Virus record (IMG/VR): IMGVR_UViG_3300031565_004791
Coordinates: 1 to 26,118 of that record
Direction: 5' to 3' (one strand)
Source of the DNA: a virus
Taxonomy: Duplodnaviria; Caudoviricetes
Length of the DNA stretch: 26,118 nt
This document shows positions 2,471 to 22,729 of this stretch, one piece after another. How positions within the stretch are numbered: position 1 is the first letter of the stretch; every line of letters begins with the position of its first letter. The translations under genes were made by a program, and so were the position numbers. A model generated the notes under the pieces. The model was not told the origin of the DNA, did no database searches, and saw only the letters and a program-made list of their open reading frames with translations.

Positions 2471-4374
2471 CGCATCTTCTCCTGAAGCATGGCTTCATAG
2501 TCGTCGTCGCTGACGTCTCCGCCGGACTCGCCGATCATGGCTTCGTAGTCGTCGTCGCTCACCTCGGGCCCGTCATCGGCGACAGGCTGCGCACGCGGCA
2601 TCGTAGCCGCTGACGCGCTGGCCGCACTCGGCACGCCGCGCGACGTCGCTGCGGTGCCCACCTCGCCGATGCGCTCGAGCGGCTGGCCTGCGACATCGCC
2701 AGTCGTGGCCGCCGCGCGTCCGTATGGTGAGCGCGCGAGCACCTGGCCGACGCGACGCGTCGTGCTGGGATTGCGGGCCGCGGACACGATGCGATCGACG
2801 TCTTCGGCAAGCTCCTGCGCGCGCTGGACCCGCGCGGAGTCGACCGCATCGTCCACGCGTGTCGCCGCATCGCGGTAGCCGCCTGGCGTGCCCTCAGGGG
2901 TCGCGCGCGCTGCGCGGTCCGCCGCCGTCTCGGCGAGCGGCGAGCCGTAGTGTCTGCCGAGCCGCTGCACGAGGTCGGCACGCGTGCGGGTGTAGCGCAC
3001 GAGGTCGTCGACGTAGTCCTGCTCCGCGGGCTCCGCGGCGCGCTGCATGGTGGACTCGACCGCGGGCCGCTTGGCGCGCTGGATCGGGTCCCACTCGTTG
3101 GGGCGCTCGGGCGAGTCTTCCAAGAAGCGTCGAGCCGCGATGCGTCGGGCGGGAATCGCCGCCGTCCACGCCGGGTTGTCCCCGCGCTGAAGCGCGGATG
3201 CGCCGCCCCACTCGGGGCGCTCGAGCGCCGCGCGAACCTCGCCGTACCACTCGCGCAGCGCCTCGGCCGCTTGCGGGTCTGCGTTCGGGTTCGGGTCGCG
3301 GCCACGCATGGGGCCGACGCGGCCTTGCATGCGGCCGATGGCGCGCTTGCCCTGGTCGAGCGCGGCGTAGACCTCGCCGACGTTGCCGCGCTCGATAGCG
3401 CGCTGTGCGCGGACAGCCTGGTCATTCAGTTCTGAACGCAGGTTGGCCAGCGCCGCGCGTCCGCTGCGACCGTAGCGGCCCTGGTCGACGAACTCGCGGC
3501 GAATACGCTCCTGCATGGCCGCAAACCAGTTCATGGCATCGTCGACCGCGCTCGGGTCGGCAGGCTCGCGCGCAAGCGCCTCGCGAAGCGTCGCGGGCTT
3601 GAAGCGGATGCGGTCGGACTCGATGGGGCTGCCGATGCGCTCGAGCTCCGTGACGGCGTCGGACACACGGGCCGCGTCGTCAGCGGTCTGCGTGACGCCA
3701 CGCTGAGCCGCACGGAGGCCGCGCCCGACGCCTCCCACCGCTGCGAGGCCGCCGCTGATGCCGCCGCCGATGGCGCCGCCGATGGCTGCGTCTTGCGCGA
3801 TGCCTTGCGCGTCTTCCGCACGGCTGCCGCCCGCTCCGGCGAGCACGCCCTCGCCAGCGGCTTGCGCCACGCGTGCTGCGACACGCGACCCACCCGACAG
3901 CCCAGCGCCAGCAGCGGGGAGCATGCGGCCCGTGGCGACGCCGCCTGCGACCGCGCCGGGGATGAACGCACTTGGCTCCGCCTCGGCCGCTTCGCCTTGC
4001 TGACGGCGCGTCGCGTCGCGGACGTCGGAGTACCCGAGGTCGGCCGCCGCGCGACCGTAGGCGTCTTCCTGGCCCTCGGGAGCCATGAGCCGCGCAAGAC
4101 CTGCTCGCATCTCCGGCGGCACCGCCTGCGACAGTCCGCCGACGAGCTCGTCCACCCATCCCGCGGTCGCGCCCTCAGCGATGCCACGACCGAACGCCGC
4201 CGCGCGGTCCGCGACGTCCTCGTACTCGGCCGGCAAGAGATTGAGCGCGCGCATGAGCCCGACGATGCGCTCCGCGCGCGACGGCTCGACGCTGCCCGTG
4301 ACCTGCTGCTCCGGCATCTCGATGACGTTGGAGTCCTCGGTGATGTCGAGGCGCTGGAAGCGGTCGCGGCTCAC
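2467..4374 (-). CDS. Putative internal virion / DNA-ejection protein (635 aa)
   Basis: GTGA overlap; Gly/Ala-rich hydrophobic segments (AFGRGIAEGATAGWVDELVGG, AAIGGAIGGGISGGLAAVGGVG); third of three large genes after the nozzle, as in P22-like ejection genes. Confidence 0.6.
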   Translation of the reverse strand: MSRDRFQRLDITEDSNVIEMPEQQVTGSVEPSRAERIVGLMRALNLLPAEYEDVADRAAAFGRGIAEGATAGWVDELVGGLSQAVPPEMRAGLARLMAPEGQEDAYGRAAADLGYSDVRDATRRQQGEAAEAEPSAFIPGAVAGGVATGRMLPAAGAGLSGGSRVAARVAQAAGEGVLAGAGGSRAEDAQGIAQDAAIGGAIGGGISGGLAAVGGVGRGLRAAQRGVTQTADDAARVSDAVTELERIGSPIESDRIRFKPATLREALAREPADPSAVDDAMNWFAAMQERIRREFVDQGRYGRSGRAALANLRSELNDQAVRAQRAIERGNVGEVYAALDQGKRAIGRMQGRVGPMRGRDPNPNADPQAAEALREWYGEVRAALERPEWGGASALQRGDNPAWTAAIPARRIAARRFLEDSPERPNEWDPIQRAKRPAVESTMQRAAEPAEQDYVDDLVRYTRTRADLVQRLGRHYGSPLAETAADRAARATPEGTPGGYRDAATRVDDAVDSARVQRAQELAEDVDRIVSAARNPSTTRRVGQVLARSPYGRAAATTGDVAGQPLERIGEVGTAATSRGVPSAASASAATMPRAQPVADDGPEVSDDDYEAMIGESGGDVSDDDYEAMLQEKMR

Positions 4375-13262: not shown

Positions 13263-14516
13263 TCAGATCGCCTGGCTGTTGACGATGCCGGTGAAGAGCA
13301 CGCTGCACGCCGGCTTGAAGCTGACGAGCGCCTGGTCCCACCACTGCCGAAGCTCGAAGCCAGCGTTCGACTCCAGTTCGCGGAAGAACCGCTCTTGCTG
13401 ACCGGTGACGCCGGGGAGCCGGAACGTCAGGTCCGCCGAGCCGACGCGCTTGAAGTAGCGGTCGGCCGTGAGAAAGGCCTCGCCGGCCTTGATCATCGGG
13501 TGCGGCTTGATCTCAATGGTGCCGGTCTGCCCGTAGAACACGAGCTTCTCGGTGCCGAGGTCGGCTTCCATCCGCATCTTCGCCGCGTAGCGCCGGAGCG
13601 CCGCCGCATCGTTGTTGAAGTCGCTCCAGGTGTACGGCGACACGCGGAGCGTAAGCGGCCCGAGACCACCACGGAACGCCGCTCGAGCCGAGCCGCGCAT
13701 GACCTTGGCGAACGTCAGCGCCGCGCCGCCCGCGCCGATGCCGTTGCCGCGCCACAGTCCGTAGGTCGCTGCGTTGATGTTGTGCATCGTGCCCGTGTTC
13801 GGCACAAGCACGCGAAGGCCGTCGAACCACGCCGCGTCCGCCTCGAAGGGGATGACGACGTCGCTCGCCTGGATCGCGTTGTTGTCCGCCACCACGCCGG
13901 TGAGCGTCACCGACCGCGTGTCGAAGTCGACGTTCGAGATGGTGAGCGCGCCGTTCGTGTTGCGCCGCGTGCCGCCGGGCGCGCTGTACACATCGACGCT
14001 CGCGCCTTCCATCTGTGCCCACAGGCCGGGGGCCCAAGACGCCTCGGTGATGACGTACGTCACCGAGGCTGCCGCGGAGCCCGCGCCCGTCAGCGTGCCA
14101 ATCGAGTCGCCACCGTAGAGGATGTTCAGCTCGCGGTAGAACGACATCGAGTTGCGCATGTCGCGGACGACGTCGTCGAACGCCGACCCGAAGGCCTCGA
14201 CGCTGGATCGCGCGCGGCTGACCACGCCATACGCGACCTGCTCGCGCATAACGGCCTGGTAGCCCTTCTCGCGGCCCGGCACAGTCTGGCCGCTGACGAC
14301 CGCGTTGAGCGCGAACGCCGTCGCGGTCTGCCCGCCCCACGTCATGCCATGGGCACGCCGCACGCGGACGTTGAAGACGTATTCGTCGCCGAGCTTCTCG
14401 GACTCCGAGAACACCATGCTCTCGGCGAGGTCACTGAATTCCGGGACGATGTCGCGTCCCTTGGTCTCGTAGCGGTCTTTGAACCAGCCATCGAGCGTAG
14501 TTTCGGTCACGGTCAT
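13263..14516 (-). CDS. Major capsid protein (417 aa)
   Basis: Position after portal and scaffold; size; strongly GC3-biased codons; GGAG RBS; HK97-fold-like pattern (DMRNSMSFYRELNILYGG, HNINAATYGLWRGN, IEIKPHPMIKAGEAF, KPACSVLFTGI). Confidence 0.85.
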   Translation of the reverse strand: MTVTETTLDGWFKDRYETKGRDIVPEFSDLAESMVFSESEKLGDEYVFNVRVRRAHGMTWGGQTATAFALNAVVSGQTVPGREKGYQAVMREQVAYGVVSRARSSVEAFGSAFDDVVRDMRNSMSFYRELNILYGGDSIGTLTGAGSAAASVTYVITEASWAPGLWAQMEGASVDVYSAPGGTRRNTNGALTISNVDFDTRSVTLTGVVADNNAIQASDVVIPFEADAAWFDGLRVLVPNTGTMHNINAATYGLWRGNGIGAGGAALTFAKVMRGSARAAFRGGLGPLTLRVSPYTWSDFNNDAAALRRYAAKMRMEADLGTEKLVFYGQTGTIEIKPHPMIKAGEAFLTADRYFKRVGSADLTFRLPGVTGQQERFFRELESNAGFELRQWWDQALVSFKPACSVLFTGIVNSQAI

Positions 14517-14670
14517 GGTGAAAATCTCCGAGGAAATGCCCGTTTCGGGGCGGTTCTTCGGCTGCCTTCACGTGTCGTGACCGGCTCCGTGGAGCACACC
14601 GGGCCCGAGGGTTACCGGCGGCTCATCGACGAAGCGGGCCCGAGGCTACGGAGCCTTGGGGTTTGTTTGC
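14517..14670 (-). promoter_or_regulatory. Structured 5' leader of the MCP gene
   Basis: 8-bp inverted repeat GGCTCCGT (14583-14590)/ACGGAGCC (14648-14655) enclosing two copies of CGGGCCCGAGG (14600-14610, 14635-14645); small hairpin just before the RBS. Confidence 0.5.
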
Positions 14671-14744
14671 TGCGCACCGCACGGAGTTTAACCGTGTCCG
14701 CGGGGATGCCTCCACCGGGTGCTGACGTTACACCACAGCGCGCA
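14671..14744 (-). ncRNA. tRNA-like cloverleaf RNA (degenerate anticodon arm, no encoded CCA)
   Basis: Acceptor CGCGCUG/CGGUGCG (extends to 9 bp), U8, D-arm GUGU-AACGUCA-GCAC, arm CGGUG-GAGGCAU-CCCCG, 4-nt variable loop, T-arm CACGG-UUAAACU-CCGUG; 70 nt from position 1 to 72. Confidence 0.7.
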
Positions 14745-14780
14745 TGCACACCATGGCACGCCGTGCCGGAGCGTGTCAAG
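14704..14780. repeat. 77-bp direct repeat, copy 1 (promoter + 5' half of tRNA-like RNA)
   Basis: 73/77 identical to 15009-15085 by hand alignment. Confidence 0.95.
14750..14779 (-). promoter_or_regulatory. Sigma70-type promoter for tRNA-like RNA and MCP
   Basis: Perfect TTGACA (14774-14779), 18-bp spacer, TG-n-CATGGT extended -10-like element; predicted +1 falls at the 5' end of the cloverleaf. Confidence 0.55.
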
Positions 14781-14970
14781 CGAGCGTCAGATTCCCGATT
14801 GGGGTGGCGTACTCCTGCGCCTTGTCGATGAACGACCACAGGATGCCGTAAGCGTTGCACGGGATGCCTTTGTGGACGAAGTCGCCTCGCGTTGCAGGGT
14901 CCTCGGTGAGCCAGTTGAGCGCCGCTCGCGCGAGGGTGCAGTCGCCGTCGGTCAGGTGAAGGTCAGACAT
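14776..14970 (-). CDS. Orphan cassette ORF, 64 aa (MSDLHLTDGDC...PIGNLTLA)
   Basis: GAGGA RBS 5 nt upstream, supplied by the duplicated scaffold tail; stop TGA lies inside the TTGACA hexamer of repeat copy 1. Confidence 0.6.
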   Translation of the reverse strand: MSDLHLTDGDCTLARAALNWLTEDPATRGDFVHKGIPCNAYGILWSFIDKAQEYATPIGNLTLA

Positions 14971-15010
14971 CGATGTCCTCGCCGTTGAGGAGCCGCGAGT
15001 ATTGCTCCGG
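14961..15010 (-). repeat. Second copy of the scaffold gene 3' end (PEQYSRLLNGEDIDV-stop)
   Basis: 44/50 identical to 15294-15343; all 6 differences are third-position synonymous in the scaffold frame. Confidence 0.95.
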
Positions 15011-15085
15011 ATGCCTCCACCGGGTGCTGACGTTACACCACAGCGCGCATGCACACCGTGACACGGTGTGCCGGAGCGTGTCAAG
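15009..15085. repeat. 77-bp direct repeat, copy 2 (promoter + tRNA-like 5' half truncated after the anticodon loop)
   Basis: 73/77 identical to 14704-14780; TTGACA at 15079-15084 (minus); contains perfect palindrome GCACACCGTG-A-CACGGTGTGC (15051-15071). Confidence 0.95.
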
Positions 15086-15299
15086 TCGGGCTGATGCCCA
15101 TCGCTCGCCGCAGCATGTCGACCGGGTACAAGCGGCGAAAGAACGCGTCTAGCGCCGCCGGCAGCCCACTCCGATACGCATCCATCGCGTCGCGAGCGTT
15201 CCATACCCTTGCCGCGAGCCTTGCGGGAGGAGCGTGGTTCGCGTACCGGCGCTCTAGCCGGCGCTGACGCTGGAGCCGACGTAGCGCGCGGCGGGTCAT
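15081..15299 (-). CDS. Orphan cassette ORF, 72 aa, Arg-rich
   Basis: ATGA overlap with scaffold stop, GAGGA 9 nt upstream; stop TGA lies inside the TTGACA hexamer of repeat copy 2. Confidence 0.55.
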   Translation of the reverse strand: MTRRALRRLQRQRRLERRYANHAPPARLAARVWNARDAMDAYRSGLPAALDAFFRRLYPVDMLRRAMGISPT

Positions 15300-16234
15300 A
15301 CGTCGATGTCCTCGCCGTTCAGCAGTCGCGAGTATTGCTCGGGCGTGAGCTGCGACGAGTGGATGCGCTTCTTCGGCGCTGCACCCGCTGCCGGGCGTCC
15401 CCCATTGGGCTTCGGGCGCGTCGCGTTTCGGTGTGCTTTGGCCTTCTCGATGTCCTGTTGACGCACCGCGTCGAGCTTGTCGCCGAGGAGCGCACGCAGT
15501 TGGTCCGGGCTCATGTCGCCGAGAAGCGAGCGGCTGTGCGTCGTCATCTCCTCGCGCACGACCTGCACGGCGTCCTCCACCGTGAAGCTGCGGTCGCCCG
15601 CGTCGAAGGCCGCGGCGAGCACCTTGGCCACCTCGGACATCATGCGCTGGCTCTTGGGCAGCCCGGCGCTTTCGAGGCCCTTGCTGATGCTCTCGATGTA
15701 CTTGGCGCGCTCGCGCTTCTCGGCCGCGGACGCCGCCGCTTCCTCGCGCTGGCGCTTCTCGGCTGCCTCGCGGTCGGCAAGGGCCTTTTCGCGCGCCGCG
15801 AGGGCGCGCTCGCGCTTGACGTCCTCCGGCGTGCGCTCCTCGGCCTCGATGAGCTCGCGGAGCTGCCTCGGGTTCACCCCGAGGTGCTGCGCCACGGCGA
15901 GGAGCCCGGCGGGGTCGCGCACGGTGTCGAGGAGCTCCCGCACCTGCGCCTTTTCGGCCTCGGTCTCTTTGCGGAGCCGCGCGGCCTCTTCCATGCGCTT
16001 ATGGCTGGCGCTGCGGAGAGTGTAGTCCCGGAGCGCGTCGCGGGCCTTGATGCGCCTCTGCTCGCCGTCAACGGTGACGGTGACGAAGCGGTCGAGATCC
16101 GCCTCGGTCAGTTCGCCGGTCTCGAGCGCCTCGCGAATCTCGGTCGCGGCCGTCTGCGCGGTTGGCGCGCCGCCTGTCGGTGCCGCGGTGCCTTGCGGCT
16201 CTGCGCCGCCTTCGGTGAATCCCTCGTCGCTCAT
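15296..16234 (-). CDS. Capsid scaffolding protein (312 aa)
   Basis: Between portal and MCP; acidic N-terminus, VTVTVDGEQRRI motif, long charged coiled coils, basic/Pro-rich C-terminal tail; GAGGAGGG RBS. Confidence 0.8.
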   Translation of the reverse strand: MSDEGFTEGGAEPQGTAAPTGGAPTAQTAATEIREALETGELTEADLDRFVTVTVDGEQRRIKARDALRDYTLRSASHKRMEEAARLRKETEAEKAQVRELLDTVRDPAGLLAVAQHLGVNPRQLRELIEAEERTPEDVKRERALAAREKALADREAAEKRQREEAAASAAEKRERAKYIESISKGLESAGLPKSQRMMSEVAKVLAAAFDAGDRSFTVEDAVQVVREEMTTHSRSLLGDMSPDQLRALLGDKLDAVRQQDIEKAKAHRNATRPKPNGGRPAAGAAPKKRIHSSQLTPEQYSRLLNGEDIDV

Positions 16235-21812: not shown

Positions 21813-22729
21813 ATCGCCCTCGCGGCCGCCGGGATCGCATCCTTCGTCAACTCCGCCCATCGTGCCACGACGAAGCCGAGCCGCCACACAAGCGGCTTGC
21901 CTCGGAAGTCCGGCGCGTGCGATGCGTCGTAGAGCTCCCCAAAGCGCCGCATGGCGCCCATCGCGATCGACCGCGCCGCTCGCCCATGGTCGTCCCAGCC
22001 GCGAGCCTCGGACATCTCCGGGGCCAGCTCGAGGACGCGTCGCTCGATGCTCTCGACGTGGGTCAGGTCCCGGCGTCGGTCTGCGTCGGTCGGTCGCATG
22101 CCGCGGGCTCGGCTGACGGCCAGCCATGCTCGCCATGGGAGCTCGAGGCTGCTCACGGTGTCGTACTCGCCGAGGGGGTCCGGGCAGTCGATCGAAGAGC
22201 CCGGTCGCGCACGGGCGCGCGGAGAGTGCGTAGCACTCTCTCTCCTCTCCTCTCCTCTCCTCTCCTCTGTCCGAGTGGTATTGAACGATTGCATAGACTT
22301 AGCTTCGTCACCAGATCCGTCAGAGGTCACGCAGAGGTCCGTCAGAGGCTCGGCAGAGGATCCGCAGAGGTCCGTCAGAGGCTCGGCAGAGGACGACAGA
22401 GGCTTCGCAGAGGCTCGCTTCCGGGCCGTCTTCGTGGTCGCCCCTTCGGCCTGGTAGCGGTCCCATCCTGGCAGGCTGGCGACTCCATGGCTCACCACGA
22501 TGCACCCGTCCGAAAGGAGCTCCTCGACACACCGGCGCACGATGCGGCGCTCATGCCTCTCGACGCCAAGACGGCGACACACCTCGTCGCCAAGCGGCCG
22601 CCCTCCGAGCGTCATCGTGCCGTCGTCCTCCACGAGCTCGGTGAAGATCTCGCGGAACACCGCCCGCGTCAGCGGCGATAGCAGCGCGAAACTCCCAGTG
22701 GCCCGCCACGACCGACGCCACGGCTTCAT
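21809..22729 (-). CDS. Replication initiator (lambda O / replisome-organiser-like), 306 aa
   Basis: N-terminal winged-helix-like region ending LPGWDRYQ; repeat-encoded linker; EERRGEERRE tract; adjacent to DnaB. Confidence 0.7.
   Translation of the reverse strand: MKPWRRSWRATGSFALLSPLTRAVFREIFTELVEDDGTMTLGGRPLGDEVCRRLGVERHERRIVRRCVEELLSDGCIVVSHGVASLPGWDRYQAEGATTKTARKRASAKPLSSSAEPLTDLCGSSAEPLTDLCVTSDGSGDEAKSMQSFNTTRTEERRGEERRESATHSPRARARPGSSIDCPDPLGEYDTVSSLELPWRAWLAVSRARGMRPTDADRRRDLTHVESIERRVLELAPEMSEARGWDDHGRAARSIAMGAMRRFGELYDASHAPDFRGKPLVWRLGFVVARWAELTKDAIPAAARAM
22236..22413. repeat. Putative replication origin: nine phased CAGAGG repeats, AT-richer patch and polypyrimidine tract
   Basis: CAGAGG at 22321, 22332, 22343, 22354, 22365, 22376, 22387, 22397, 22408; 30-bp exact repeat 22331-22360/22364-22393; (TCTCC)5 at 22241-22265. 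Confidence 0.75.

Follow-up and report, generated by a model that had tools for sequence, protein, structure and literature searches.

Two slot alleles in tandem, joined at a degenerate tRNA, between the putative scaffold gene and the capsid gene of a podovirus-like phage

The 26,118-nucleotide (nt) stretch of DNA dealt with here, IMG/VR record IMGVR_UViG_3300031565_004791 from end to end and called the window below, comes from a GC-rich, podovirus-like soil phage whose minus strand encodes terminase subunits, a portal, a 312-amino-acid (aa) open reading frame (ORF) in scaffold position, the major capsid protein (MCP) and tail-connector proteins. The subject is the interval between the ORF in scaffold position and the MCP gene, where two short ORFs, each with its own copy of both flanks, stand in tandem and are joined at what is a degenerate tRNA. 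The putative scaffold gene (15296..16234) has no family match of its own, and homologs lie between portal and MCP in 59 of 62 loci. The MCP gene (13263..14516, 417 aa) matches the major head protein family phrog_14242 (E 5.8e-08) and, weakly, PF17236. The features of this interval are on the minus strand and are taken in the direction of that strand.

The first unit, A, opens with the tail of the scaffold gene (15294..15343), which gives the ribosome-binding site (RBS) and overlapping start of ORF72 (15081..15299), slot allele A; then come the first copy of an inferred capsid-gene promoter (15055..15084; TTGACA, palindromic 18-nt spacer, CACGGT) and the 5′ 40 nt of a tRNA-like element (15009..15048, identical to 14704-14743), reaching through the anticodon-position loop at 15017-15011. 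Unit B has a second scaffold tail (14961..15010) with RBS and start of ORF64 (14776..14970), slot allele B, a promoter copy differing from the first at 4 positions (14750..14779; TTGACA, 18 nt, CATGGT) and the entire 73-nt tRNA-like element (14671..14743), after which a structured, conserved leader (14517..14663) whose last stem covers the RBS leads into the MCP gene. Each ORF begins within the stop region of the scaffold gene, preceded by a GAGG at a distance of about 10 nt, and each ends at the TGA within TTGACA (15084-15079 and 14779-14774). An earlier note, made from the letters of this DNA, had described two tandem units with unrelated ORFs and shared flanks, the ORFs taking RBS and start from the scaffold tail and stopping in the −35 hexamer, and the coordinates bear this out.

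Two direct repeats underlie the arrangement. One of 77 nt (D2; 14704-14780 and 15009-15085, spacing 305, 95% identity, self-match E 2.7e-28) has 4 differences, all within the promoter, and 49 nt that are identical; the other, of 50 nt (D9; 14961-15010 and 15294-15343, spacing 333, 88% identity), has 6 differences, all silent, both copies encoding the same 15-residue scaffold C-terminus. They overlap by the letters CC (15009-15010), directly 3′ of the 7-nt anticodon-position loop, and this is a non-homologous junction of tRNA half to scaffold tail with 2-nt microhomology, just where the earlier note had placed a join with a few shared bases. A contig from another study, X7, carries the copy-2 letter at 15341, and the parental overlap at the junction is therefore 2 nt. 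No further copies of the slot repeat were found elsewhere in the genome, nor any terminator-like site on the minus strand between 12000 and 19000, and among the 48 distinct relatives an internal repeat in the scaffold-MCP interval is present only in the window locus.

The tandem arrangement is real and no simple mis-assembly. The stretch is held by six soil runs from 2019 (X1-X6), for which the population data are k=31 unitigs, and in all six, as the check for sequence across the junction proposed at the outset would have it, unitigs cross the junction at a depth of 37-89 (14723-15038 in X1-X5, 14978-15038 in X6). A second assembly, IMG/VR record G001, which is the same phage (99.95% identity over 13.25 kb, 7 differences), carries the same tandem, and IMG/VR contig L008 ends at 15009, the last base common to both continuations, as expected at a branch. 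Co-occurring A-only and B-only strains could in principle have been mis-assembled into a tandem, as a strain bubble, given that single-gene forms appear to co-occur and that the evidence consists of unitigs. However, the joined sequences share just 2 nt, so the junction words are not assembler inventions; 31-mers across the junction, present in neither single-gene genome, recur in every one of the six runs, and with the same tandem in a second assembly this explanation is highly improbable.

Unit number, in keeping with what had been foreseen, appears to vary within the population. The depth of unit B relative to its flanks is 0.45-0.55 in X1-X3 and 0.69-0.84 in X4-X5, a reduction suggesting that genomes without B are present. 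In X6 a 46-nt link (15311-15356, depth 22, with 3 other letters) connects the scaffold unitig to the copy-2 tail letters and, because it shares the 3852-nt upstream unitig, is taken as a deletion product lacking unit A. The depths and this one link contig thus point to single-gene derivatives coexisting with the tandem, and the three states inferred in X6 agree with loss of B or of A via the repeats. A different account of such depths is that unit B is largely a 305-bp circle, or multimers of one, recombining with allele-A genomes via the 77-nt repeat in the manner of PeSL mini-circles, the tandem being one state of a mobile mini-cassette. Unit B does loop in the unitig graph and is at about half the flanking depth in X1-X3, the junction piece in X6 is deeper (73) than the ORF72 piece (64), and promoter-repeat mini-circles are documented in phages RB49 and phi1 (PMC2839356). 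Nevertheless, both the window and G001 assemble as a linear tandem across the 49-nt identical core, with the 127-nt end overlap of G001 suggesting long assembly k-mers, the repeat is present in just two copies, and PeSL circles, estimated at about 1 in 10^5 virions (PMC2839356), are far below half-depth. The circle is considered unlikely.

What relatives hold at the same place is informative about the alleles. From 62 loci, 59 have a scaffold homolog (3 were dropped), and these represent 48 distinct loci at 90% over the first 200 MCP residues. In L002 (MCP 66% identical) a single ORF, 51% identical to ORF72, is followed by promoter and leader, whereas in L070 (MCP 63%) and L069 (MCP 44%) the slot is empty, the scaffold stop running almost directly into the −35 box. 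The 754-nt X7 contig goes from scaffold directly to an 83-aa form of ORF64 (ORF83), then promoter and leader; 3 letters of the window correspond to 60 in this contig, in agreement with the 83-aa proteins P0107, P0110 and P0111, and the contig is without the 82 nt (14664-14745) that hold the entire tRNA-like element. In a second clade, with MCPs 99.8% and 85% identical and again the −35 box as right border, L018 is empty, L019 has a 67-aa ORF and L036 an unrelated 92-aa ORF; L018 looks like a deletion from the L019 state. A scaffold-coupled ORF of at least 55 aa is present in 6 of the 48 distinct loci (L019 and L036, merged with L018, are not among the 6), one of them being a 169-aa ORF in L064 that reaches up to the MCP gene and is probably structural. 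From these states it follows that the slot is variable and mostly empty, and that the tandem is unique among the loci compared. The interval from scaffold stop to capsid promoter is accordingly a variable one-gene slot in this phage family, as the earlier note had supposed from the window alone. Two further points go against its cassette reading: no relative was found to have the same junction with another cassette, and a stop codon in the −35 box is no cassette signature, because in L015/L016 the scaffold's own stop is within that box and in L002 the ORF stop is 8 nt before it.

The reading that we consider probable is a single illegitimate recombination event, at 2 nt of microhomology within a degenerate tRNA acquired recently, that put two sister alleles in tandem, with homologous recombination now resolving the pair. 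RecT-type annealing, at the scaffold tail on one side and at the promoter or leader on the other, would carry alleles from one sister phage to another, and a tRNA gene remnant would have been gained at the transcription start of the capsid gene. A single break-and-join would then have linked the scaffold tail of an allele-B genome to an allele-A genome broken just beyond the anticodon-position loop. Unit B would be lost by crossover between the 77-nt copies and unit A by crossover between the 50-nt copies, so that a single population would contain A+B, A-only and B-only genomes. Coupling to the scaffold gene would allow translation of ORF72, and the duplicated capsid promoter would be a gain for ORF64. 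The tandem appears to be collapsing by ordinary recombination, and it looks like gene swapping between phages caught midway, not like machinery dedicated to capture.

The position of the junction, 0-2 nt from the 3′ edge of the anticodon-position loop, is the feature that this reading accommodates least readily, the anticodon loop being a known crossover site of tyrosine integrases (PMC4383910). In an alternative the degenerate tRNA serves as an attachment site for a tyrosine integrase supplied in trans by the host or a helper; each cassette inserted into the anticodon loop would have the 5′ fragment of the tRNA on its upstream side and the complete tRNA on its downstream side, with arrays able to grow. 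Besides the junction at the loop edge, the geometry fits the 5′-fragment class of tRNA islands (PMC4383910). But the complete genome is without an integrase, the scaffold-tail partner sequence is unlike the 7-nt loop, the insert is a sister allele of the same locus with scaffold tail included, slot genes are swapped in relatives lacking the element, and a single junction was seen, in a single phage population. On these grounds integrase-directed capture is given a low probability. Integron-like or tRNA-directed capture, close to the idea of the earlier note, is likewise unsupported, L002, L070 and X7 differing in slot content without the element and neither integrase nor resolvase being present; the note's remark that the window has no integrase extends to the complete genome, G001.

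Several further points weigh against the single-join reading. Chance accounts only moderately well for a junction at the loop edge. The junction unitigs hold 30 letters on the tRNA side, one below the bridging rule, because k=31 unitigs break where the repeat begins; a tandem and a free 305-bp circle look alike in unitigs, and depth does not give the share of molecules. The six soil runs share year and habitat, are maybe from one campaign, and four may be the source of the window. The X7 evidence is one contig at depth 4.5. Unit B depth stays high in X4-X6, and selection could be keeping unit B. If the single-join reading is right, its interest is that phage mosaicism is usually inferred from end products, and here a likely intermediate and both likely collapse products are in the same samples. 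The single-allele and empty states in relatives complement the tandem, making steps of accessory-gene exchange testable from existing reads.

As to the element at which the units meet, it is a degenerate tRNA. It has (14743-14671) an 8-bp acceptor stem, D arm, 7-nt loop GAGGCAU, 4-nt variable loop and T arm; the nominal anticodon is GGC, A33 stands in place of U33, U19 and A56 replace G19 and C56, and the 3′ end is AGCA, without CCA. It folds as a cloverleaf, the energy z being just −1.19. A covariance model built from 18 ordinary phage tRNAs has the element as its top match (19 bits, E 0.0026; the next is at 12.3), and the same model scores other phage tRNA-like genes outside its training set at 32-58 bits. 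Class-I cloverleaf geometry (U8, A14, G53, U54, U55, A58, C61), by rules written after the element was seen, is present once in the window and in 0 of 150 shuffles. The tRNA-like RNA of the earlier note goes undetected by default ARAGORN, by Rfam at gathering score and by RF00005. ARAGORN at a 90% threshold does call it, with 11 of 200 shuffles also giving a call. ARAGORN calls at 85% in relatives were set aside, since 61 of 200 shuffles call at that level, with the exception of one in L042, confirmed by Rfam. In this distant relative a true tRNA-Met (3736-3810; Rfam 60 bits) stands where the window has its degenerate tRNA, with a scaffold-coupled ORF of 70 aa on one side and the MCP gene on the other. 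The element has no real match in 50,697 GenBank phage records, and the covariance model has no match at the slot of L002, L070 or L069. Since L002, L070 and X7 are without it yet differ in slot content, the element would be a recent gain at the inferred transcription start and, judged from such comparisons, is not needed for slot exchange.

A pattern made from the D arm has 67 matches in 66 viral loci, 56 of them distinct, and a T arm accompanies it in 17. Position 56 in the 17 is A in 6, T in 6 and C in 5; five (four T, one C) close no acceptor stem by manual reading. Among the other 12, A56 is present in this phage, L191, L193 (tRNA-His), L206/L224 and L208 (amber), while each of the 18 control tRNAs has C56. 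The pattern suggests that U19 and A56 compensate each other in the elbow and that the element derives from a phage tRNA gene. In genome contigs the D-arm pattern matched 2 loci, and neither of these is a tRNA. The U19 D arm also occurs in tRNA-like genes of phage tRNA clusters (L191, L192/L194, L206/L224, L227, L244 and, at 601-616, L219), most of which have a 3′ CCA, with odd anticodon arms (8-nt loops, long or short stems) and A56 being common; they are possibly a class of phage pseudo-tRNAs. In L005, L007 and L208, amber-reading (CTA) tRNA genes lie beside or among such U19 genes. Some phage tRNAs reportedly act against anticodon nucleases. A broader proposal gives the degenerate tRNA, with its U19-A56 elbow, a working role in the capsid transcript, as a signal for processing or a decoy for nucleases; its anticodon loop would also be a repeatable landing site, and the phage would build and trim an array of late-expressed accessory genes without an integrase of its own. 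This must be regarded as a long shot. As to what phage pseudo-tRNAs do, the degenerate tRNA gained at the head of the capsid transcript is one lead, and the joint occurrence of U19 and A56 in a number of phage tRNA genes is another.

The promoters are inferred from TTGACA with an 18-nt spacer and weak −10 boxes. TTGACA is in both copies, as the earlier note said; a sigma-70 consensus scan gave 0 promoter sites. L002, L070 and L069 have TTGAC-17 nt-TAnnnT at the same place, and in 9 of the 62 loci a relaxed promoter pattern lies no more than 700 nt from the MCP match. In three relatives with different sequences the inferred spacer is palindromic (window 15055-15084; L002 5823-5852; L070 3821-3850), a possible operator or hairpin. 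The capsid leader (14517-14665) folds with a z of −2.96, and in a comparison of three sequences (window 14517-14663, L002 5853-6000, L070 3850-4000) 12 of 46 predicted pairs are altered on both sides. There is no Rfam match. The leader pattern matched 103 viral loci, of which only two, already known, encode this capsid region within the DNA covered around the match. The last stem over the RBS, as modeled, is a candidate for translational control.

ORF72 is 51% identical to the same-slot ORF of L002 and 83% identical to protein P0124, the two other homologs in the collection; for it, the proportions of nonsynonymous (pN) and synonymous (pS) differences are 0.34 and 0.60 over 70 codons. These homologs and a pN below pS make ORF72 a probable gene. 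ORF64, a form of the 83-aa protein that lacks 19 codons, belongs to a cluster with 5 members of which 3 are of 83 aa and one, with a different deletion, is of 63 aa; the 8 listed differences from X7 are 4 silent and 4 replacement. Searches for homologs of the slot ORFs covered proteins of near-query length. No family for ORF72 or for ORF64/83 emerged, with nothing usable in PHROGs, Pfam, NCBIfam, PADLOC or ESM Atlas (best feature score 0.77). Weak matches below cut-off to GemA (E 0.043) and a hydroxybenzoate monooxygenase, and one to mascRNA (E 0.008), were set aside. AlphaFold models are of low confidence (pLDDT 51 and 69, pTM 0.37 and 0.28, the ORF72 values being pLDDT 68.7 and pTM 0.28). 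ORF72, with an Arg-rich N-terminus, is predicted to be all-helical, and that N-terminus could bind the capsid leader RNA. The anti-defence role suggested for the slot genes has gained no support from the databases named and is a guess from context, by analogy.

It is nevertheless conceivable that the tandem arose as proposed above but is held by selection, both small proteins being useful (e.g. against host defence) and ORF64 served by a strong duplicated promoter. Unit B keeps its 0.69-0.84 of flanking depth in X4-X5 despite the 49-nt perfect repeat, ORF72 has the low pN just given, and counter-defence genes are often in phage accessory regions (bioRxiv 10.1101/2023.04.06.535777). But neither protein has a functional match, ORF64 is 19 codons shorter than 3 of the 4 other members of its cluster, and most relatives have an empty slot, a coupled ORF of at least 55 aa being confined to 6 of 48 distinct loci. 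Maintenance by selection is given a low probability, and a tandem formed once and resolving is preferred. As for known kinds of gene gain, a moron is defined by its own promoter and terminator. There is a likeness to lambdoid morons in a single extra gene between conserved virion genes, present or absent among relatives, but ORF72 has no upstream promoter or terminator of its own and overlaps the scaffold stop. Tandem one-gene units recall integron cassette arrays; those have IntI and attC, both lacking here, and the promoter here is at the 3′ end of the units. No attC was seen by reading of the sequence and an Rfam scan, no attC model being run. A GTTAAAC in the T loop fits GTTRRRY, but it is absent from unit A, and the junction lies at the anticodon arm, 21 nt from it.

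In the PeSL cassettes of RB49 and phi1, small orphan genes are flanked by short repeats with a sigma-70-like promoter; when repeats recombine, genes are inserted, deleted or replaced, and circles may be set free (Arbiol et al. 2010, PMC2839356). Repeats with an inferred promoter around small orphan genes, and gene shuffling predicted from repeat recombination, would be common to both. However, PeSLs are early promoters in many copies, with stem-loop terminators, in hyperplastic regions, whereas the present phage has its late capsid promoter twice, as the product of a single duplication, and coding sequence as one of the flanks, and a search of the coding strand showed no terminator; this is not a PeSL array. 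Phage accessory regions, as portrayed by Silas et al. (bioRxiv 10.1101/2023.04.06.535777), have variable small genes bounded by a conserved gene pair. Variable small genes with no assigned function between conserved genes are likewise found here; the differences are a one-gene slot with predicted coupling to the scaffold gene and two alleles in tandem with the scaffold tail duplicated. Rad52-like phage recombinases act on short, diverged sequences, the relaxed homologous recombination of De Paepe et al. (2014, PMC3945230), and the present phage codes for RecT and an exonuclease and has flanks that are short and 5-12% diverged. Relaxed recombination would account for allele exchange and collapse, with the identical cores of 14 and 49 nt as candidate substrates, but not for a 2-nt junction. 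Finally, of 3919 tRNA islands listed by Islander, 159 are in the rare 5′-fragment class and 2083 are anticodon-centered (PMC4383910). The order of 5′ tRNA fragment (15048-15009), insert and whole tRNA (14743-14671) in direct orientation, with a break at the anticodon loop, is similar, whereas the 305-bp unit holds only ORF64 and no integrase, the target is a degenerate tRNA in a phage genome and the insert is the same locus of a sister phage. In the literature searched, which leaves out most subscription papers, no description turned up of a slot between scaffold and capsid genes with a tRNA-like junction.

The genome closes as a 38.5-kb circle via the 127-nt end overlap (record G001). In the part of G001 outside the window a RecT-like annealing protein (PF03837, E 4.5e-31) adjoins the exonuclease, and repressor-like helix-turn-helix proteins, methyltransferases and an endolysin are also encoded. 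For tyrosine integrases and resolvases there is no PF00589 or PF00239 match in the complete genome (PF00589 at E<=1, record G001), and no integrase among the 28 + 89 ORFs compared with PHROGs. G001 as a whole record and L182 alike have a circular genome with repressor-like helix-turn-helix genes and RecT and no integrase or resolvase found, which is possibly a matter of plasmid-like lysogeny or of lost integration.

Relatives of the MCP are absent from the 50,697 GenBank phage records and none was found by a single-protein scan of genome contigs; a metagenome scan gave at least 3 loci. The closest Logan/ENA relatives by MCP, P0001 and P0002, are 92-97% identical, the slot comparison resting on other loci. 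No ORF72- or ORF83-cluster protein is listed for the 35,697-nt contig with P0001 and P0121 (MCP 97%), a hint that its slot may be empty or carry another allele, though gene calling may have missed short genes. Elsewhere in the window, five to seven 11-nt iteron-like repeats (22318-22394), inside an ORF beside a DnaB-like helicase gene, likely mark a replication origin.

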